From the NCBI GenBank assembly GCA_963790305.1, contig CAWBOC010000010.1:128001-192000 (forward strand): DNA of 64,000 nt, in the 5' to 3' direction. The notes under the pieces were generated by a model that did no database searches, was not told the DNA's origin, and worked only from the letters and a program-made list of their open reading frames with translations. Positions 6,689 through 25,234 of this stretch are shown one piece after another (positions within the stretch are counted from its first letter, which is position 1; every line of letters starts with the position of its first letter). Position numbers and translations under genes: made by a program. This DNA is from an uncultured Gemmatimonadaceae bacterium (GTDB lineage Bacteria > Gemmatimonadota > Gemmatimonadetes > Gemmatimonadales > Gemmatimonadaceae).

Positions 6689-6928
6689 TCATTCCTCCTT
6701 CTCCCTCAACGCGTCGAGCTTTCGGGAAGACGCAATCACGCGCCTGGCGAGATCGACGATACGTCTCACCGAGTCTCGCTGCTCCTCGTTGAGAGTGGCG
6801 TCGAGCTCCAGGAGCTGCGATTCCGCCAGCAGCGCGGCGAGTGGGTTGTTCATCTCGTGCTGCACTCGGCCTACCGCGTTCGATAGCTCCATCACCCGGC
6901 TGGTCTCGCTCAGCTTGTGCTCGCTCAC
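6689..6928 (-). CDS. Stand-alone histidine-kinase dimerisation/phospho-acceptor (HisKA/DHp) protein, 79 aa
   Basis: H-box VQHEMNNPLAALL followed by a second helix. No ATPase or sensor domain. Confidence 0.75.
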   Translation of the reverse strand: MSEHKLSETSRVMELSNAVGRVQHEMNNPLAALLAESQLLELDATLNEEQRDSVRRIVDLARRVIASSRKLDALREKEE

Positions 6929-7040: not shown

Positions 7041-7628
7041 ATGACACGCGCCGACGTTCACACCGAGATCACCGCCGCCGTCGATGCCTATCGGGAGGAC
7101 GCGAACATCGCCCACCTCCTCGAGCGCATCGAGGACGTCGCGCGTACGGCCGATCCCGACACGCTCGCGTCAGCGGTCGAGCCGTTCCGGGCAATGCCCG
7201 AGGTCGCGGGCCCGGCATATGAGCACATCGTCGCCGCCAAGCCTGACGACGCGCATGCACTGGTGATTCTCGCCAACGCCTACTGGCTCGCGGGCCGCGG
7301 GCCGGAGCACGTCGCGGAGCTCGCCTCCCGCGCCATCGCGGCCGATCCGACGCATCGCGGTGCCTGGCACCTCTGGGCACTGACCGAGAGCGATCTTCGC
7401 TCTCGTGTGAGCCGCTGGCACCAGGTCGCCGAGCGCTTTCCGGGTGACCAGCTCGCTCGCGCGAACCTGGCCGACAACGCGGCCGCACTTGCCTCGACCG
7501 CTCACGATCGTGAGGCACTCGACCTGGCGATTGAGACCTATGGTGGACTGCTGGCCCTGGCCGAGCGGGAGGAGGAGCGTCAGGCGTTGGGGCGCGCGAT
7601 CGAGACTCTGCGAGGATGGCGGTTGTGA
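7041..7628 (+). CDS. Helical TPR-like hypothetical protein
   Basis: TPR-like segments PDDAHALVILANAYWLAG and RAIAADPTHRGAWHLWA. Confidence 0.7.
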   Translation: MTRADVHTEITAAVDAYREDANIAHLLERIEDVARTADPDTLASAVEPFRAMPEVAGPAYEHIVAAKPDDAHALVILANAYWLAGRGPEHVAELASRAIAADPTHRGAWHLWALTESDLRSRVSRWHQVAERFPGDQLARANLADNAAALASTAHDREALDLAIETYGGLLALAEREEERQALGRAIETLRGWRL

Positions 7629-7695: not shown

Positions 7696-8091
7696 CTACG
7701 CGCTCGCGTCTCTCACTCGCGGCGCCATTTTCGCCAGCTCACCGGTGAGCTCCTGCAGCTCGAACGGTTTGTGAAGCGCCTTGCAGCCGCACGCCTCGAT
7801 GAGCTCGAGCGCGCGCTCACTGGTGTCACCAGTGGTGAAGAGCGTGCGATAGCGCAGGTGCGGCTGGATCGATGCGGCGAGCTCGAACAGCACGTCCCCA
7901 CGCAGGTCGGGGATGCGGAGATCGAGCACGAGGAAGTCGAAGTGTTCAGCGCGGAGGAGCGTGTGGGCCTGCTCGCCAGCCTCGACGGCAATGACGTCAT
8001 AGCCGGCGCGCCCGAGGGCGATCGTCAGCGCACGACAGATCGTCGGTTCATCATCGACCACGAGTACACGCAACCGTTCATTGAACCGCAT
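7696..8091 (-). CDS. Single-domain response regulator (receiver only)
   Basis: RVLVVDDE, LVLDLRIPD (phospho-Asp), FTTG and HKPF. Start MRFNERL overlaps the end of the AraC gene. Confidence 0.9.
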   Translation of the reverse strand: MRFNERLRVLVVDDEPTICRALTIALGRAGYDVIAVEAGEQAHTLLRAEHFDFLVLDLRIPDLRGDVLFELAASIQPHLRYRTLFTTGDTSERALELIEACGCKALHKPFELQELTGELAKMAPRVRDASA

Positions 8092-8875
8092 TCGTTCGCT
8101 CTCCTCGCCGTGCCAGCCGCGCCGTGAGCAGCGCGACGAACTCGTCTGGTGGTACACTTTGCCGCAACGTGGTCGGCGTGAGCCCCGTGGCTGCTCGAAC
8201 CTGCCGTGCGAACAGCCGAGCCGATCCGTAGCCGAGCCGCTCGACCACCTCGTCCAGCGAGCGTCCCGGGTCCTGCATGTAGAAGTACGCGCGCAACAGT
8301 CGCGCGCCCAGCACCAGCATCCTTGCCGAAGCCACTCCGGCGCGTTCGAGCCACCGGTCCAGCGCCCTGCGGTTCATCGCCGCGGCCTTGGCGAGATCGT
8401 TCACATCCCTGAACTGCTGCGGTACCCGAAAGAGCCGCTCGACGGCTCGCGCAAGCTCGGCGGGGACAGTCGCGAGCGGTCGCGCGAGCAATGCGAGCAC
8501 CGCATCACTCATCGCGTACGCCGGCTGCCGCTCCAGGAGATCGCGGAAGCGGCGCGGCTCGTCGTCGAAGTTCCGGAGGACGACGTGCCGCACGCCCAGC
8601 TTTGCCAGCTCGACCGTCGCCCCGAGCGTTTCCGGAGCGAGGATCGTGTAGATCACTACTGGGAGCGAAGGGAAGTCCCGGATCAGACTCCGGAGCTCGT
8701 CCAGTCGCACCGTTCCCTCGGCCCGTGGATCGGCAACGAGCAGATCCACCGGCTTGCGTCGCACTTCGTCCTCGAGCTCATCCCACCGATCGACGGTGAT
8801 GACGTGGTGCTCGCGGCCGAGGACGATTCGCAGGTGGGACAGCAGAAGGGGAGGGAGACGGACGACGACGTTCAC
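8078..8875 (-). CDS. AraC-family regulator with an atypical receiver-like N-terminal domain
   Basis: C-terminal double HTH (VNDLAKAAAMNRRALDR; SLDEVVERLGYGSARLFARQVRAATGLTPTTLR). N-terminal VDLLVADP...PVVIYT resembles a receiver fold. Confidence 0.85.
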   Translation of the reverse strand: MNVVVRLPPLLLSHLRIVLGREHHVITVDRWDELEDEVRRKPVDLLVADPRAEGTVRLDELRSLIRDFPSLPVVIYTILAPETLGATVELAKLGVRHVVLRNFDDEPRRFRDLLERQPAYAMSDAVLALLARPLATVPAELARAVERLFRVPQQFRDVNDLAKAAAMNRRALDRWLERAGVASARMLVLGARLLRAYFYMQDPGRSLDEVVERLGYGSARLFARQVRAATGLTPTTLRQSVPPDEFVALLTARLARRGERTNAVQ

Positions 8876-8901
8876 GCCATCGGATTACGTGTCCTAAAAG
8901 T

Positions 8902-8984
8902 GCACATCGATGTCTCAAGATGTGCGTTTACCGATGGACGCGTAACCGTACCTTGCGTGACAGTTGCAACCCCCCAGTTACAAC
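8902..8984. promoter_or_regulatory. Candidate operator sites in the divergent AraC/peptide intergenic region
   Basis: Inverted repeat GCACATC-N10-GATGTGC (8902-8925) and direct repeat CAGTTGCAAC/CAGTTACAAC (8961-8970, 8975-8984). Confidence 0.45.
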
Positions 8985-9004
8985 TCTTCCCGCGAGGTCA
9001 GATC

Positions 9005-9139
9005 ATGTCCCGCCGCCGCCTCTCTCTCCTGGTGCTCTCCCTCCTGACGTTCGCTGTCGCTGCCTGCGCTGACGTGACTGCGCCGGAACCGAGCAGTGAT
9101 TGCGCGATCACCTCAGGCTCCGCCGGCAAAACCTGCTGA
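9005..9139 (+). CDS. Small exported lipopeptide precursor, 44 aa (MSRRRLSLLVLSLLTFAVAA-CADVTAPEPSSDCAITSGSAGKTC)
   Basis: GAGGT RBS upstream, a basic n-region, a hydrophobic h-region, lipobox VAA-C21, and its own intrinsic terminator. In the ORF track it appears only as the tail of the spurious 8081..9139 ORF. Confidence 0.8.
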   Translation: MSRRRLSLLVLSLLTFAVAACADVTAPEPSSDCAITSGSAGKTC

Positions 9140-9160
9140 CATTAGTTCGTTCCAATCTTC

Positions 9161-9193
9161 AGGCCGCGGACTGCCATCCGCGGCCTTTTTTTT
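9161..9193 (+). terminator. Rho-independent terminator of the lipopeptide gene
   Basis: 10-bp stem AGGCCGCGGA/TCCGCGGCCT with a 6-nt loop and a T8 run. Confidence 0.9.
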
Positions 9194-9198
9194 CAGGG

Positions 9199-10440
9199 CT
9201 ATCCAGCGACTCCGGCCAGCTCGCGCATGCTACGAACCGCGGTTGCCACGCGTTCCACTTCGGGCGTGGGCTCGGGAGCATTCGCGATGATAACCACTCC
9301 CGCCTGGTCGAGCGACTGAAGACTTTGCTCGGCGCGGAAGAGTGCCTGGTTCATCCCGTGGCGCTCCGCCAATTCAACGGCGCGCAGTAACGCAGCTCGC
9401 GCGGCCGAGACGTTGCCGAACATTCGGTAACCCTCGCCAACATAACAGTAGTAGTGACACGCCAGCGTCGCCGGTAACGTCGCGTCCGCAAGCTCACGGC
9501 GATACTGCTCGAATACCGGCTCCCGCCCGTCGACGGCAGCGCATTCCAAGAGGTTGATCGTCGCCACCCAGCGCGTATGCTGCTCCTGAGCAGTGGCAGC
9601 GAGGATCAGATAGGCATCACGCGCGGCGTCGCGCAGTCCCAGCTCGAAGAACGCGGCGGCAATGTCACCCAGCACGCGGTCGCGCGAGGCGGCGTCCGTG
9701 TATCCTTCGAGAGCCTGGTATCCCAGCGTGACAGCGAGGTCGTATTGTCCACGCCGGAACGCGATGTCTGCACGGTCGTGCAGGGCGATCGAGCGGATCT
9801 CGCCACACCGGTTGGCATCTGCCTCGCGGATCGTATCATCGAGAAGCGTTTGCGCGTACGGCAGATTGCCACGCTCGATCGCAATCTTCGCCTCGTTGAC
9901 TCGCGCTCGCAGCACGTTCACGATGTCGCTCGCCATCGCGGCCGCGCACCCCGCACGCGCATACGCCGCCGTCGCTTCATCCCATTCAGCGAGGGTACGG
10001 AGACACGCACCGAGCTGCATGTTCGCGGCGATCACGATGTCGGCTTCCTCGACCGGATGCGCGTGCGCGATCACCGTTTCATGGACGTCGGCCGCCAGCT
10101 CCCAGCGTCCCTCGAACTGGAGCGCCCGACCATAGGCGAGGAGCCGCGGTGCAATCAATGGCACGCGGACCGTTCGTGAGGTTTCCATCGCGTCCACGAT
10201 GCTGGCGAGGATAGACCGTGTCGCCGAACCAAGATCAATGGCTTCGATGGCCTCGCGCACCGCCCGCAGGCCCCACGCGTCGGCCGCGACCACGCTCGGC
10301 CCTTCGACGAGCCATGCATCGAAGAGACGCAACGTGACCAAACCGGCGCTCGTCAGGCGCCAGTCCGCGCTGCCTTCCTCGGCGCGCGCAAGCGCTTCGA
10401 AGAACGGCAGGTGCTGGAGATTGGGCTCGCTCATGGTCAT
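9199..10440 (-). CDS. Tetratricopeptide-repeat (TPR) protein without an obvious DNA-binding domain
   Basis: Repeated TPR-like helices: LLAYGRALQFEGRWELAADVH, QLGACLRTLAEWDEATAAY, ADIAFRRGQYDLAVTLGYQAL and VLGDIAAAFFELGLRDAARDAY. Confidence 0.8.
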   Translation of the reverse strand: MTMSEPNLQHLPFFEALARAEEGSADWRLTSAGLVTLRLFDAWLVEGPSVVAADAWGLRAVREAIEAIDLGSATRSILASIVDAMETSRTVRVPLIAPRLLAYGRALQFEGRWELAADVHETVIAHAHPVEEADIVIAANMQLGACLRTLAEWDEATAAYARAGCAAAMASDIVNVLRARVNEAKIAIERGNLPYAQTLLDDTIREADANRCGEIRSIALHDRADIAFRRGQYDLAVTLGYQALEGYTDAASRDRVLGDIAAAFFELGLRDAARDAYLILAATAQEQHTRWVATINLLECAAVDGREPVFEQYRRELADATLPATLACHYYCYVGEGYRMFGNVSAARAALLRAVELAERHGMNQALFRAEQSLQSLDQAGVVIIANAPEPTPEVERVATAVRSMRELAGVAG

Positions 10441-10734
10441 TCCGAATCCTTATCGACGTGATCGGACTTTCTGCCATTATGCGCTATGAAATTGACGAGG
10501 GTCATAGGGCGCCGCAACGACACTTTTGAGACACGGAGCGCATGAATCCAGACACTTGTACCGCCAACACCACTGATTCAGAGGCGCGATCTACGCAGAA
10601 TATCGACGGTGACCAGAAAGACGACGCATCCAACTCCCTCCTGTACGGGTTATCTTTCGTTCGCCACCCCGCACACGCATCGCCGGCTCGATCGTCCTTA
10701 GGACAGCGCGACCTACCACCCCTCAAGGCGCACC

Positions 10735-22171: not shown

Positions 22172-25100
22172 ATCCGCATCGACGACCTGACGAAGCTGCC
22201 GCTTCGTAGCGCGTTCATCGAGCAGCTCACGGCCGCGCTCGAGATCGCGTCGGCCACAGGCCAGCCGGTGTCGCTGCTCGTCATCGACATCGATCTCTTC
22301 AAGCTGGTGAACGATACCTACGGTCACCTGCAGGGAGATCGTGTGCTCGTCGAGATCGCGGAGCTGCTGCGGCAGAACCTGCGCGCCGACGACCTGGCCG
22401 CTCGTTATGCGGGGGATGAGCTCGTCGCTCTCCTGCCGAATACGCCGGCCGACCGCGCTCGCGAGGTCGCCGAGCGACTGTGTGCCGCCGTGCGCGGACA
22501 TGCCTTCCAGGTGCGGGACCGCGACGAGCGTCTGTCCACCAGTATCTCGATTGGCGTCGCGACCTCTCCGGAGAACGGTGTCGACCCGGACGCGCTGTTC
22601 GCGGCCGCTGACCGCGCGCTCTATCAGGTGAAGCGACAAGGGCGCGACGGTGTCGCCGTCGCGACCGCCGGTGCAGCCGACAGCGGTCATCTGCCCCTCG
22701 GAATTGAGCGGTTCGTGGGTCGCGTGAACGAGCTGCGTCAACTCGTGAGACTGCTCGACAATGCGAAGGCGGGGCGTCCGGCCATCGTCGCCATCGCGGG
22801 CGAGGCGGGCATCGGCAAAACGACGTTGCTGCGCCAGCTCGAGCCCGAGGTCCGACTGCGGTCGGGCTCGCTTGTCATCGGACGAGGGCGCGAGGCCGAC
22901 GTTCAGCCGCCCTATGCTCCGTGGGCGGAAGTACTGTCGGCCATTCGCCGAACCACGCCGCAAACCGATCGAACGTGGCACGAGCTCCCGCATCTCGTGC
23001 CCGCACTCGCCGCGAGCGACCGGCCGGCGCCGGGCTCGCGCGTCGGCAGCAAGTACATGCTGCTCGAGGAGATCTCTGAGTACGTGCGAACGGCGGCGCG
23101 CGACCGCCTGCTCGTCATCGTGCTCGATGACGTCCAATGGGCGGATTCAGCCTCGTGGGACATGCTCGAGTTCCTCGTCGGACAGCTCGGATCCGAGCAC
23201 CTGCTCATCTGCCTGACGATTCGTGCCGAGGAGATGCAGGGGGAAACTCTCGAACGTCGCCGCCGACTCTCGCGCAATGAGCGCTTTCGCGAGCTCACCC
23301 TGTCTCGCCTCGCGCGTGACGAGCTCAAGCAGTGGCTTCAGGCCGCCTTTCATCGACAGGAGATCGGCCGCGAGCTGCTCGCGTTCCTGTACCACCACAC
23401 CGAGGGTAATCCACTCTTCGTCGTTCAGGTGCTGCGTACCCTGGTCGAGGAAGGTTCGATCTGGCACGATCGCGACCATTGGGAGTGGCGCCCCGTGTCG
23501 GAGCTCCGGCTCCCGGTCGCGATCACCGACCTCATCTCGCGGCGTCTCTCGCGCCTTTCTGCGAAAGCACAGGCCGTCCTGACGACCGTGGCCGTCATCG
23601 GCCGCGAGTTCGATCTCGACCTCGCCATCGAGGCGAAAGCGGGCACCGAGGCGGAGCTGCTCGACGTGATCGATGAGGGAATGCGGGCCTCGGTGCTTCA
23701 GCCTACCGCGGCGCGGGGAGGCGATCGATACGCGTTCGCCCACGTCCTCATGGCCGAGGTCCTCACCGAGTCCGTGAACGCCCGCCGCCTGCGGCGGATG
23801 CACGAGCAGGTCGCTCAGGCCATGGAGCGTCTGACGCCTGACGCCATTGCCGAAATCGCGACGCATTACGACCGCGGTGGGGTTGGAACCAAGGCGTACG
23901 AGTATGCCATGCTCGCCGCCGAGCGTGCGCGACTCGTGTACGCCCACCAGGAAAGTGCCGACTTCTTGCGCATCGCCGAGCGTAACTCGAGCTCTGCCGC
24001 CCAGCTGGCCGAGGTTCGTGTGCGGCGGGCCGAGGTCGCTGAGTCGGTGGGTCGTTATGAAGAAGCCGAAGAGATGTGTGATCTGGCCATCGAGTGGTTC
24101 ACCGGACAGGGAGAGAGCCGGCGCGCGATCTCGCTGCGCCGGATGCGAGAACGGGTGCGGGCACTGCTTGGCCAGCCGAACGCGAGGACGCTCGAGCACT
24201 GCCTCGCCCTCGATGCAGAAGCTCTGGCGCACGGCTTCGACGACGAGCGCGTTTCGCTCCTCACCATGATCTCGCAGACGTACGGCCGCCTCGGCGACCG
24301 CGTCGAGGCGGAGCGCGTTGCCGTTGAGTGTGTTCGCATCGCCCAACAACTCGGGGATCCGCTGCGACTGGCGGAGTCGCTCAACCGCCTCGGGATCACG
24401 CTGGCGCAGGACGAGCCGGCCCGCGCCATCGAGCACTACGAGCGTGCGCTGGCCCTCTTCGAGCGCGCCGGAGACCTCGTGGGACAGGCGCGATGCCGCA
24501 ACAACATGGGCATCGTGTACTCGAGCCTCGGCAAGTGGCAGCGCGCGACGGACGAGCTCACCGCATCGATGTCGCTGGCGCGGAGCGCGGGCACGCCCGA
24601 GCAGACAGGGACCGCCGGGATCAACCTTGGCGTCGCCCATCTGAAATGCGGCGATTTCGAGCGTGCGCGCGAGCTGTTCGGTGAGGCGCTCGCGATCTTC
24701 GCGGCGCAGAAGAGCACCGAGCGACAGCTGTACGCGCTGTACAACCTCGCGCACCTCGATCGCGAGCGTGGCGAACATGCGTCGGCGCGCGAGCTGTACG
24801 ACGTGGTGCTCGGCATCGCACGAGGGATCGGCCAATCCGATGTCGAGCTGGGCGCACTCGCCGGCGAAGGGCTGGTGCTGCTGCGCATGGGATTGGTCGA
24901 CGATGCCCGCGTCTCGCTCAATGACGTGGAAGCGCGGATGCAGGCGCGGCCCGACTGGTTCCAGGGACGCGAGCTTGCGGAGGCGCTTCGTGTCCGCCTC
25001 GCAGCGCTCGAGTCCATGACCGGTGCAGTGTCAATGTTCTATCGCGCGCTCGCGCTCGCCGAGACGACCGACTTCTATGGCGCGGCGTGGCTCATCGCAG

Positions 25101-25234
25101 AATGCGCCGACATCCTCGATGCACACGACCGCGCGCTGCTGCGCAGCTCCGTGAATCGTTTCGCCCCGCAGGTGAAGAGCCAGGGCTATCACGGGATGAG
25201 CCGTCGATATACCGAACTGCTCTCTCGGGAATAA
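22172..25234 (+). CDS. GGDEF + AAA (STAND-like) ATPase + TPR multidomain signalling protein; start uncertain
   Basis: DDLTKLPLR (22181), DIDLFKLVNDTYGHLQGD, RYAGDEL, Walker A GEAGIGKT, LDDVQWAD, TEGNPLF and C-terminal TPRs. The first canonical start (22268) lies inside the GGDEF domain. Confidence 0.85.
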   Translation: MRIDDLTKLPLRSAFIEQLTAALEIASATGQPVSLLVIDIDLFKLVNDTYGHLQGDRVLVEIAELLRQNLRADDLAARYAGDELVALLPNTPADRAREVAERLCAAVRGHAFQVRDRDERLSTSISIGVATSPENGVDPDALFAAADRALYQVKRQGRDGVAVATAGAADSGHLPLGIERFVGRVNELRQLVRLLDNAKAGRPAIVAIAGEAGIGKTTLLRQLEPEVRLRSGSLVIGRGREADVQPPYAPWAEVLSAIRRTTPQTDRTWHELPHLVPALAASDRPAPGSRVGSKYMLLEEISEYVRTAARDRLLVIVLDDVQWADSASWDMLEFLVGQLGSEHLLICLTIRAEEMQGETLERRRRLSRNERFRELTLSRLARDELKQWLQAAFHRQEIGRELLAFLYHHTEGNPLFVVQVLRTLVEEGSIWHDRDHWEWRPVSELRLPVAITDLISRRLSRLSAKAQAVLTTVAVIGREFDLDLAIEAKAGTEAELLDVIDEGMRASVLQPTAARGGDRYAFAHVLMAEVLTESVNARRLRRMHEQVAQAMERLTPDAIAEIATHYDRGGVGTKAYEYAMLAAERARLVYAHQESADFLRIAERNSSSAAQLAEVRVRRAEVAESVGRYEEAEEMCDLAIEWFTGQGESRRAISLRRMRERVRALLGQPNARTLEHCLALDAEALAHGFDDERVSLLTMISQTYGRLGDRVEAERVAVECVRIAQQLGDPLRLAESLNRLGITLAQDEPARAIEHYERALALFERAGDLVGQARCRNNMGIVYSSLGKWQRATDELTASMSLARSAGTPEQTGTAGINLGVAHLKCGDFERARELFGEALAIFAAQKSTERQLYALYNLAHLDRERGEHASARELYDVVLGIARGIGQSDVELGALAGEGLVLLRMGLVDDARVSLNDVEARMQARPDWFQGRELAEALRVRLAALESMTGAVSMFYRALALAETTDFYGAAWLIAECADILDAHDRALLRSSVNRFAPQVKSQGYHGMSRRYTELLSRE

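Follow-up and report, generated by a model that had tools for sequence, protein, structure and literature searches.

A conserved three-gene cassette of Gemmatimonadota built around a 44-residue lipoprotein-type peptide, a candidate exported pro-signal

Introduction

What could a lipoprotein-type precursor of 44 amino acids (aa) be for? The question is raised by positions 9,005 to 9,193 of a 64,000-nucleotide (nt) stretch of contig CAWBOC010000010.1 from an uncultured Gemmatimonadaceae bacterium, the whole of which is called the window here. A small open reading frame (ORF) in this interval had been picked out from the letters alone (the original prediction), and was read as a tethered or proteolytically released ligand closed by a disulfide, or else as the core of a ribosomally synthesized and post-translationally modified peptide (RiPP). 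We found that the ORF is a real gene and the middle member of a robust cassette, in which it is flanked by genes for an AraC-type regulator and for a cytoplasmic tetratricopeptide repeat (TPR) protein. We propose that the lipopeptide may be the exported pro-signal in a split Rap/Phr-like (RRNPP-like) circuit of a diderm phylum, a well-motivated mechanism to which we give a probability of roughly 45%. The cassette and its AraC-type operator, both absent from the original prediction, hold most of the functional information.

In the relevant parts of PMC10075063 and PMC11343458, signalling by peptides through cytoplasmic TPR receptors figures as a trait of the Bacillota. Searches of the literature on small lipoproteins, peptide quorum sensing and RRNPP receptors in Gemmatimonadota, apart from the supplementary lists of the RRNPP surveys, gave no description of the cassette. 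If the proposal is right, peptide communication through TPR receptors extends to diderm bacteria, in a widespread and barely cultured soil phylum, and a lipoprotein route exists for the export of a pro-signal. Under a conservative reading, the cassette still adds a new family of tiny lipoproteins that are served by a dedicated pair of regulators. Annotation is warranted for the slot that the two larger cassette genes enclose, and the system lends itself to direct tests: its three genes are small, its promoter is defined and its peptide can be made synthetically.

The lipopeptide gene is a genuine conserved coding gene

The ORF starts at the ATG at 9005, ends with the TGA at 9137-9139 and encodes MSRRRLSLLVLSLLTFAVAACADVTAPEPSSDCAITSGSAGKTC, 44 aa (features and coordinates are collected in Table 1). 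A basic n-region (MSRRR) is followed by a 13-residue hydrophobic h-region, LSLLVLSLLTFAV, and by the lipobox V-A-A-C with its Cys at residue 21. The mature part would have 24 residues: the lipid-bearing Cys, the segment ADVTAPEPSSD, and a C33-x10-C44 element that closes the protein. All that had been listed for this interval, namely the ORF, ribosome-binding site, signal peptide, VAA-C lipobox, strong terminator and 24-aa mature part, is present. In other genera the GAGG/GGAG element of the ribosome-binding site stands equally far from the ATG, although the bases around it have changed. The lipobox conforms to [LVI][ASTVI][GAS]-C; Cys21 occurs in 12 of 12 sequences and is at least 90% conserved in a 51-sequence alignment, in which one row was displaced by the aligner. 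The genome to which the window belongs encodes Lgt (PF01790, 173 bits) and, twice in tandem, LspA (PF01252, 129 and 114 bits; contig C9:60874-61826, minus strand). Given a conserved motif and a genome that encodes Lgt and LspA, we infer that the product is a lipoprotein precursor exported through the general secretory (Sec) pathway and cut by signal peptidase II (SPII). A VKOR-type disulfide-forming enzyme is also encoded in the genome.

The transcript would end at an intrinsic terminator, which has a 10-pair stem (eight pairs G-C) at 9161-9186 and a T run to 9193, and folds as RNA at -20.8 kcal/mol. It is the sole terminator-like site in 8500-9700, where 0.5 were expected from shuffled sequences. 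A G+C-rich hairpin follows each orthologue, and its stem varies by compensatory changes. Two Rfam candidates, suhB/mmgR (22 bits against 41) and BcKCsr7, were rejected as sub-threshold matches that lie over the terminator only. The peptide itself matched no Pfam family at E ≤ 0.01 and no NCBIfam family at E ≤ 0.1; the labels Lpp and LolB that JGI places on some homologues were set aside, as no model match supports them.

We searched 60 relatives and found orthologues in all eight genomes of the same genus (E 1e-11 to 1e-17; seven complete and one cut by a contig end), together with weaker orthologues in other genera. Signal-peptide likeness inflates the overall tally of that search, 54 of 61 at E ≤ 1, which is to be disregarded. 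The original prediction had made the gene depend on homologous regions preserving the frame, the lipobox and the cysteines; these are kept in 8 of 8 genomes of the genus and in other genera, and 12 extracted ORFs from at least four genera all retain the start, the frame, the lipobox Cys and the two C-terminal Cys.

Substitutions were counted by the Nei-Gojobori method on the eight complete orthologues of the genus, the truncated one (G008) being left out. Over the lipobox and linker (codons 16-32), the proportion of synonymous differences (pS) was 0.575 and that of nonsynonymous differences (pN) was 0.089, giving a pN/pS of 0.15, and 14 of the 22 variable columns fell at third positions. The loop (codons 33-41) was the fastest-evolving part, with a pN/pS of 0.52. 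The pS of codons 1-15 was 0.088.

These counts bear on the notion that a chance ORF lies within a conserved non-coding element, such as a small RNA or a leader. It could draw on the 129-nt intergenic region, which is almost invariant across nine genus sequences, on the similarly near-invariant first 45 nt of the ORF, and on the weak Rfam matches at the terminator. However, the substitution pattern contradicts it: codons 16-32 vary mostly at third positions under a low pN/pS, the protein features persist in other genera on a different nucleotide sequence, and no Rfam family reaches its threshold in 8000-10500. We give this notion almost no credence.

A profile built from 12 sequences matched 237 proteins at E ≤ 0.01, from 559 candidates of 23-84 aa in a collection of 5.8 billion proteins. 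Among the matches listed, nearly all are 41-48 aa long, and those with names are mostly 'hypothetical protein' of Gemmatimonadaceae metagenome-assembled genomes (MAGs). The relatives are named Gemmatimonadaceae or Gemmatimonadota bacterium. The gene had been described as unannotated and as one that gene callers would usually overlook; this was not confirmed, since 237 homologues have been called in public data and form a large family. The window's own genome holds no paralogue of the peptide, its two weak matches being signal peptides of long ORFs.

In soil RNA libraries of two studies (X2, X7), contigs span the intergenic region and the 5' part of the ORF. They are 90-95% alike to the locus and therefore come from relatives; the X7 contig continues with the loop sequence of a relative in the genus, and one contig bridges the divergent promoter region. 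We take them as a weak hint of expression, since DNA carry-over is possible. The RNA-library contigs (X1, X2, X7) show no cover over most of the TPR gene, which carries no evidential weight. From the above data we concluded that 9005-9139 is a genuine conserved coding gene for a tiny pre-pro-peptide of the lipoprotein type, and the earlier view of a small precursor, too small to be an enzyme, is supported.

The gene is the middle member of a three-gene cassette

The lipopeptide gene lies between a divergent gene, encoding a regulator with a receiver fold and an AraC-type helix-turn-helix (HTH), and a convergent gene for the cytoplasmic TPR protein. In a first set of 22 loci, we observed a homologue of the AraC-type regulator in 15 (33-96% identity) and of the TPR protein in 14 (29-85%). 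The fifteenth cassette locus, in which no TPR homologue was seen, is cut by a contig end, so that both genes flank the small ORF in 14 of 15; one of the 15, L014, comes from the unpublished genome G015. The other seven loci are signal-peptide or weak matches and not orthologues. Among 20 further loci seeded with the peptide, from other genera and families, single-sequence tblastn found both flanking genes in 14. Two more are cut by contig ends and four have one partner, although L030, one of these four, has the TPR gene when a profile is used.

The association was also followed from the TPR gene. A TPR profile matched 61 of 121 sampled genomes of the phylum (20 of 28 in family f1, 33 of 53 in family f2 and 7 of 39 in the others). 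We inspected 20 TPR-seeded loci, drawn largely from genomes that the peptide profile had missed and hence biased towards divergent peptides; in 17 of them a small Sec/SPII ORF lies in the expected orientation between the 3' end of the TPR gene and the start of the regulator gene. When a single TPR protein was used as query for related loci, two were found, both in Gemmatimonadaceae MAGs.

The peptide profile (A1) matched 77 of 301 sampled genomes at E ≤ 1e-4 (30 of 69 in f1, 43 of 125 in f2 and 3 of 107 in the others), some of these matches being bare signal peptides of long ORFs. This profile also misses divergent cassette peptides, as several TPR-positive, profile-negative genomes do carry a lipopeptide ORF. 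The tallies from the peptide search of 60 relatives and from the peptide and TPR profiles include the unpublished genomes G015, G217, G102 and G141.

Some genomes have more than one cassette. By tblastn, G019 and G219 hold two each, and every copy has its own three genes; three cassettes lie in G128, and two or more in G220. The second cassette of G226 (L028) gave a weak TPR match and no AraC match. We concluded that the three-gene cassette is conserved in two Gemmatimonadota families and is duplicated as a unit in some genomes.

At two loci of one genus, L049 (G116) and L050 (G118), the slot holds a co-directional ORF of 57-78 aa with no signal peptide. It is conserved between the two genomes, has an Ala/Met/Ser/Gly-rich tail, and may be a different kind of cassette peptide.

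The cassette peptides share an export signal and a variable C-terminal core

We tabulated 44 cassette peptides and read four more; the truncated L011 and the unpublished L014 were left out, and L041 and L042 are duplicate fetches of L015 and L019. The layout of n-region and h-region is common to all 44 tabulated ORFs, and the lipobox is found in all of these and in the four others. Most have a short linker resembling (S/T/A)-x-x-T-(A/G)-P. In the window's genome, T-(A/G)-P follows the lipid Cys at a distance of 2-8 residues in 16 of 471 candidate lipoproteins, about nine times a rough chance estimate, the candidates having come from a loose regular expression that lets in spurious small ORFs; examples from other lipoproteins are C-A-D-P-T-A-P and C-D-D-R-P-T-G-P. 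In this organism T-(A/G)-P may be a generic lipoprotein linker or a sorting motif.

The Cys pair had been put forward, as a Cys-X10-Cys loop, as the defining feature of the peptide. We observed that its spacing, where it is present, runs from x7 to x11 (x17 in one longer protein), and that it is missing from 11 of the 17 TPR-seeded cassette peptides. The loop is a lineage-specific feature. What recurs is a C-terminal core of the form (V/I/Q)-G-(S/T/A)-(G/N)-(N/T), which appears in peptides with the Cys pair (...ITSGSAGKTC in the window, and elsewhere ...PVVSGTGTRKDC, ...PVTNGSSTC and ...PNNNTC) as well as in peptides that have none (...QGANN, ...QGSNN, ...VGSGN and ...QGSGT).

In a cassette from another family of the class (G157), the mature part reads C-TSPTGPD-(HTIGSGN)x3. 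Of 43 candidates in a search with this peptide, 35 proteins passed E ≤ 0.1; 26 of them were read, and in these the heptad HT[IL]GSGN occurs one, two, three, four or five times, and the lengths step by seven residues. This variation in copy number looks like that of propeptides which are cut into repeated mature units. According to the relevant part of PMC9765709, the mature peptide is often present in several copies in the propeptides of Rap, NprR, PlcR and AimR, and the pheromone is usually C-terminal; tandemly duplicated Phr propeptides are matured by extracellular proteolysis, as the corresponding part of PMC11343458 describes.

A core rich in Ser, Thr, Gly and Cys could also belong to a RiPP precursor with an enzymatically modified C-terminus, as the original prediction had allowed. 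Multi-core RiPP precursors are known, and one subfamily here has repeated units. The remaining evidence runs the other way: a Pfam scan of 16 neighbouring ORFs (about 2.6-25 kb) found no modifying-enzyme family, the genes conserved alongside encode a regulator and a TPR protein, and the N-terminus, instead of being a leader, is a Sec/SPII signal whose lipobox is invariant. The RiPP-like core was thus not borne out, and we regard it as very improbable.

The partner proteins are a TPR superhelix and a receiver-fold regulator

The TPR protein has no signal peptide. Its stop codon lies 5 nt past the T run of the terminator, and the stop codons of the two genes are 59 nt apart (9139 and 9199). The family is uniform in length, with 1131 representatives at E ≤ 1e-3 and 289 at E ≤ 1e-30, and its Atlas clusters, which are unnamed, are commonest in Gemmatimonadota. 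An AlphaFold2 (AF2) model made from a 59-sequence alignment is an all-helical superhelix of about ten repeats, with a predicted local distance difference test score (pLDDT) of 95.9 and a predicted template-modelling score (pTM) of 0.90. Foldseek placed the peptide-binding TPR domains of LGN/Pins first (E 1.7e-7). The fold Z scores were 24.7 for LGN and 24.3 for Pins, 20.9 for the Rap protein of phage phi105 with peptide (298 residues aligned, root-mean-square deviation (rmsd) 5.2), 20.9 for the Rap protein of pLS20, 20.8 for MalT domain III, 20.6 for RapI, 20.3 for RapH-Spo0F (310 aligned, rmsd 5.9), 20.3 for OGT, 18.3 for NprR and 15.5 for PlcR. A complex prediction for the TPR protein (alignment A3) with the 44-aa precursor (A4) scored 0.01 against a mark of 0.32; it was run without controls and is neutral on binding.

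The AF2 model of the regulator (pLDDT 88.1) has a (beta-alpha)5 receiver domain joined to helical HTH domains, and the best Foldseek matches are the full-length response regulators FixJ, PorX, NarL and RcsB. Invariant in 28 cassette homologues are D49 (the phospho-acceptor position) with P50, Y76, and D104-D105-x-P107. Downstream of the regulator gene lies a gene for a single-domain CheY-like response regulator, which is found in many cassettes and not in all; neither G019 locus nor several others gave an RR153 match. Within the genus, the TPR protein is 70-85% identical, and the two regulators are 88-96% and 85-97% identical.

The pairing of these proteins resembles a known arrangement. In type III secretion, AraC activators work with TPR chaperones, as in InvF-SicA and MxiE-IpgC; there, too, the genes of an AraC-type regulator and a TPR protein go together, and an exported protein is tied into the regulation. 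By analogy, the cassette TPR protein might chaperone the unexported precursor and, once freed by its export, pair with the AraC-type regulator. Such a secretion-coupled partner switch would need no re-import, as all three proteins or precursors meet in the cytoplasm. The neighbouring AraC-type and TPR genes mirror the InvF-SicA pair, the unusual nucleotide conservation of the first 15 codons and 5' untranslated region (UTR) would fit, and the TPR protein has a sub-threshold NCBIfam match to LcrH/SycD, the only sequence hint for the switch (E 0.01). That match, however, is far under its cut-off (15.6 bits against 104.8). The chaperones are small three-repeat proteins of about 165 aa that serve type III substrates, whereas the cassette protein has 413 aa and about ten repeats, and no type III secretion genes were seen in the examined part of the window. 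A core that varies and repeats also suits a released unit better than a region bound by a chaperone. We consider the switch improbable.

The intergenic region carries a putative AraC-type operator

Two direct half-sites of the form TGTC-N2-AAAA, TGTCCTAAAA... at 8890 and TGTCTCAAGA... at 8911, lie upstream of the lipopeptide gene, 21 nt apart from start to start, and the second overlaps the -35 element of a promoter-like pair of hexamers. The half-sites are invariant in nine genus sequences and recognisable in two other genera (G011 and G032), in which both hexamers and their spacing are also kept with differing bases around them. Transcription would start near 8960 and leave a 5' UTR of about 45 nt. 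A scan of 8500-9700 with a stricter sigma-70 consensus gave no promoter-like site.

In the classic activator site of the AraC/XylS family, a direct repeat lies over the -35 element and a second copy stands one helical double-turn further upstream. The same layout was observed here, with two half-sites about 21 nt apart and the promoter-proximal one overlapping -35. We therefore regard 8890..8931 as a putative binding site of the neighbouring AraC-type regulator, which would on this ground control the peptide gene. The tandem pattern, with up to three mismatches, occurs twice in the whole 4.3-Mb genome. Direct repeats of 10-19 nt, spaced 20-21 nt and mostly of the type TGTCGCAAAA, stand upstream of the peptide gene in five of eight cassettes, counted with a repeat finder that misses the window's own gapped copy and those of G011 and G032.

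The second tandem site of the genome (contig C5:342801-344662; L065/L066) lies upstream of a gene for a 575-aa lipoprotein with an HExxH (HEYGH) zinc-protease-like motif. This protein matched no Pfam family; its gene was found in none of eight genus relatives and in 3 of 40 other genera, there without the site. The gene may be an accessory one that was recruited to the same regulator. The second site is therefore not a conserved part of the system.

The stretch 8955-9049, which comprises the 5' UTR and the first 15 codons, is near-invariant in the genus, with a pS in those codons of 0.088 against 0.575 in the next 17. The low pS and the near-invariant 5' UTR suggest a constraint at the level of RNA or translation initiation in addition to coding. 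The 5' UTR also contains a palindrome, GTTGCAAC (8963-8970), and a near-copy of it, GTTACAAC (8977-8984). A hairpin between GTTGCAAC and GTTACAAC was considered and rejected, the pairing being weak and not retained in relatives.

The main rival to a signalling role is a regulated envelope lipoprotein with no part in signalling. Here the AraC-type regulator, with the TPR protein as co-sensor, would switch on a tiny lipid-anchored peptide whose role is physical, for example stress-protective, or that of a spacer, an adaptor or a surface decoration. Small regulated lipoproteins are common in other bacteria. The invariance of the lipobox in all 44 tabulated ORFs and four more speaks for this explanation, as does the linker after the Cys, a generic motif of larger lipoproteins; the second operator-like site precedes another lipoprotein gene, which fits a small envelope regulon. 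Yet it leaves unexplained why each duplicated cassette has its own regulator and TPR gene, why the core is hypervariable between lineages and still bracketed or repeated within them, and why a seven-residue unit occurs at one to five copies; nor was any named small-lipoprotein family matched. On balance we find an envelope role of this kind rather unlikely.

A proposed pro-signal circuit

In the exported pro-signal circuit that we prefer, the lipopeptide gene would be driven by its own promoter under the neighbouring AraC-type regulator. The precursor would be exported through Sec, lipidated on Cys21 and cut by LspA to give a 24-residue lipid-anchored peptide, in which a Cys33-Cys44 disulfide would close the C-terminal core I-T-S-G-S-A-G. 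This core would be the working part of the signal. Released from the envelope or displayed on it, it would be sensed by way of the cassette TPR protein, which would act on the receiver-fold regulator (and on the CheY-like protein where present) and so feed back on the peptide promoter. In support of the circuit, the loop and core form the fastest-evolving part of the peptide, and the TPR protein diverges faster than the regulators. The genome encodes three oligopeptide-binding proteins of the SBP_bac_5 family, so peptide import is possible, and nothing more follows from them. A tethered or proteolytically released peptide ligand, one of the two earlier suggestions, is favoured by this context.

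Several observations weigh against the circuit. Its support is contextual, and binding, release and uptake are all putative. The invariant lipobox means that the peptide starts out anchored to a membrane; release needs a protease, and re-entry has to cross two membranes. The linker C-A-D-x-T-A-P is generic and uninformative because larger lipoproteins share it. The 6-to-11 split between peptides with and without a loop is biased, since the loci were chosen where the peptide profile had missed. In three of the 20 TPR-seeded loci no lipopeptide ORF was found (G116, G118 and one with nothing in the slot). Rap proteins are among the best bacterial fold matches of the TPR protein, but they are tied with generic TPR proteins and stand below LGN; the TPR protein gave no sequence match to any solved chain in the PDB, RRNPP receptors included, and it has no DNA-binding domain. 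The gene order is convergent, unlike the co-oriented receptor-propeptide pair that is typical of RRNPP systems. Finally, the receiver domain of the regulator lacks the acidic pair after strand 1 and the lysine after strand 5. It is an atypical, probably non-phosphorylated domain, and the parallel with a phosphorelay is therefore loose.

A wider version of the proposal, which we hold with more doubt, would see in Gemmatimonadota a whole set of pheromone cassettes of the Rap/Phr kind, which have until now been described from Bacillota and their mobile elements alone. Each would combine a lipoprotein pro-signal, its C-terminal G-S-G-N-type core either repeated for release or cyclised by a disulfide, with a stand-alone TPR receptor that reads it. 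The receptor would control an atypical receiver-AraC regulator and, by way of the neighbouring CheY-like and HisKA-only proteins, a short phosphorelay; duplicated cassettes with divergent cores might then serve soil bacteria as private channels.

Relation to known peptide-signalling systems

The signature used by RRNPP_detector, as given in the relevant part of PMC10075063, comprises a small propeptide with a Sec tag and, as its direct neighbour, a receptor of 250-500 aa with TPRs; that part describes a survey of Firmicutes and viruses in which LIPO(Sec/SPII) tags count as 'relaxed' and not 'strict'. All five points of the signature are seen at the present locus, in which a 44-aa propeptide (range 10-100 aa) with a Sec/SPII-type tag by motif adjoins a 413-aa TPR receptor candidate. 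As a homologue, however, the cassette would be at best a doubtful member of RRNPP/RRNPPA: no sequence match was found, the fold is tied with generic TPR proteins, and the organism lies outside the taxon criterion of Bacillota and their mobile elements.

The closest parallel is to the Rap-Phr pairs of Bacillus, its plasmids and phages. In both, a cytoplasmic all-TPR protein of about 380-410 aa with no HTH is encoded next to an exported propeptide of about 40-45 aa, whose variable functional unit is C-terminal and can occur in tandem copies, and cassettes multiply within genomes. Some Rap proteins act on receiver domains, and the present cassette contains a receiver-fold regulator and a CheY-like protein. 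The differences are also considerable. The host here is a diderm; an invariant Sec/SPII lipobox takes the place of an SPI signal; in the window's lineage the core is probably closed by a disulfide, and the gene order is convergent; the output protein is a separate AraC-type regulator with an atypical receiver domain. No sequence homology between the TPR protein and Rap was detected, and binding and import are putative in the cassette.

Other systems share fewer features. In PlcR-PapR, NprR-NprX and Rgg-SHP the HTH is fused to the receptor, whereas here the TPR protein and the AraC-type HTH are separate polypeptides; the fold matches to PlcR and NprR are also weaker than those to generic TPR proteins. 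The enterococcal sex pheromones, such as cCF10 from CcfA, are cut from lipoprotein precursors and sensed by a cytoplasmic RRNPP receptor. They resemble the present case in having a lipoprotein-type precursor as the source of a peptide signal, but derive from the signal peptide of a full-size lipoprotein, whereas here the precursor has 44 aa and the candidate signal is the variable or repeated element at the C-terminus of its mature part. MgrB is a membrane-anchored regulator of about 45 aa with two conserved extracytoplasmic Cys about ten residues apart, which acts on a sensor kinase. It is similar in size, anchoring and Cys spacing; unlike the lipopeptide, it has a transmembrane helix and a sensor kinase as target. 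The cassette holds no kinase that has a sensing domain, and the two peptides are unrelated in sequence.

Other features of the locus

Table 1. Positions of the features discussed, in window coordinates.
Feature	Position	Strand	Basis or remark
Lipopeptide precursor gene	9005..9139	+	44 codons and TGA; translation, orthologues, pN/pS, profile
Signal peptide	codons 1-20, 9005-9064	+	
Lipobox Cys21 codon	9065-9067	+	
Mature 24-mer	9065-9136	+	Cys33 9101-9103, Cys44 9134-9136
Shine-Dalgarno GAGG	8994..8997	+	7 nt before ATG; sequence and conservation
Intrinsic terminator of lipopeptide transcript	9161..9193	+	hairpin energy, compensatory stem changes
Two direct half-sites TGTC-N2-AAAA (putative operator)	8890..8931	+	first at 8890, second at 8911
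Promoter-like hexamers	8927..8954	+	TTTACC 8927-8932, 16-nt spacer, TACCTT 8949-8954
Cassette TPR protein, 413 aa	9199..10440	-	Pfam TPR_12 E 4.4e-8, AF2, fold matches, synteny
Cassette regulator, 265 aa	8078..8875	-	receiver fold and AraC-type HTH (HTH_18 E 2.9e-12); divergent from lipopeptide gene
Single-domain CheY-like response regulator	7696..8157	-	Response_reg E 1e-15; downstream of AraC-type gene
195-aa TPR-like protein	7041..7628	+	conserved next to the cassette within the taxonomic family of the window
79-aa HisKA-only ORF (dimerisation and histidine phosphotransfer domain, DHp) with H-box	6689..6928	-	HisKA E 2.3e-8

The HisKA-only ORF lies next to the gene for the 195-aa TPR-like protein in other genera of the same family as well (tblastn; L038, L039, L046, L048, L043 and L044). 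Its product may make up a short phosphotransfer chain with the CheY-like protein and the receiver-fold regulator. In its longest form, the CheY-like ORF shares 80 nt with the 3' end of the AraC-type gene; an alternative start at Met23 (8091) seems equally likely and would leave an overlap of 14 nt.

The Pfam scan of the 16 neighbouring ORFs identified Omp85, Rho, the HisKA-only ORF, TPR proteins, response regulators, a desaturase, a fasciclin protein, a deacetylase, a penicillin-binding protein, DUF1501/DUF1800 proteins, an M23 peptidase and a major facilitator superfamily transporter. Further along the window, 22268-25234 on the plus strand encodes a 988-aa protein that combines GGDEF, a STAND-type AAA ATPase and a long, MalT-like TPR region.

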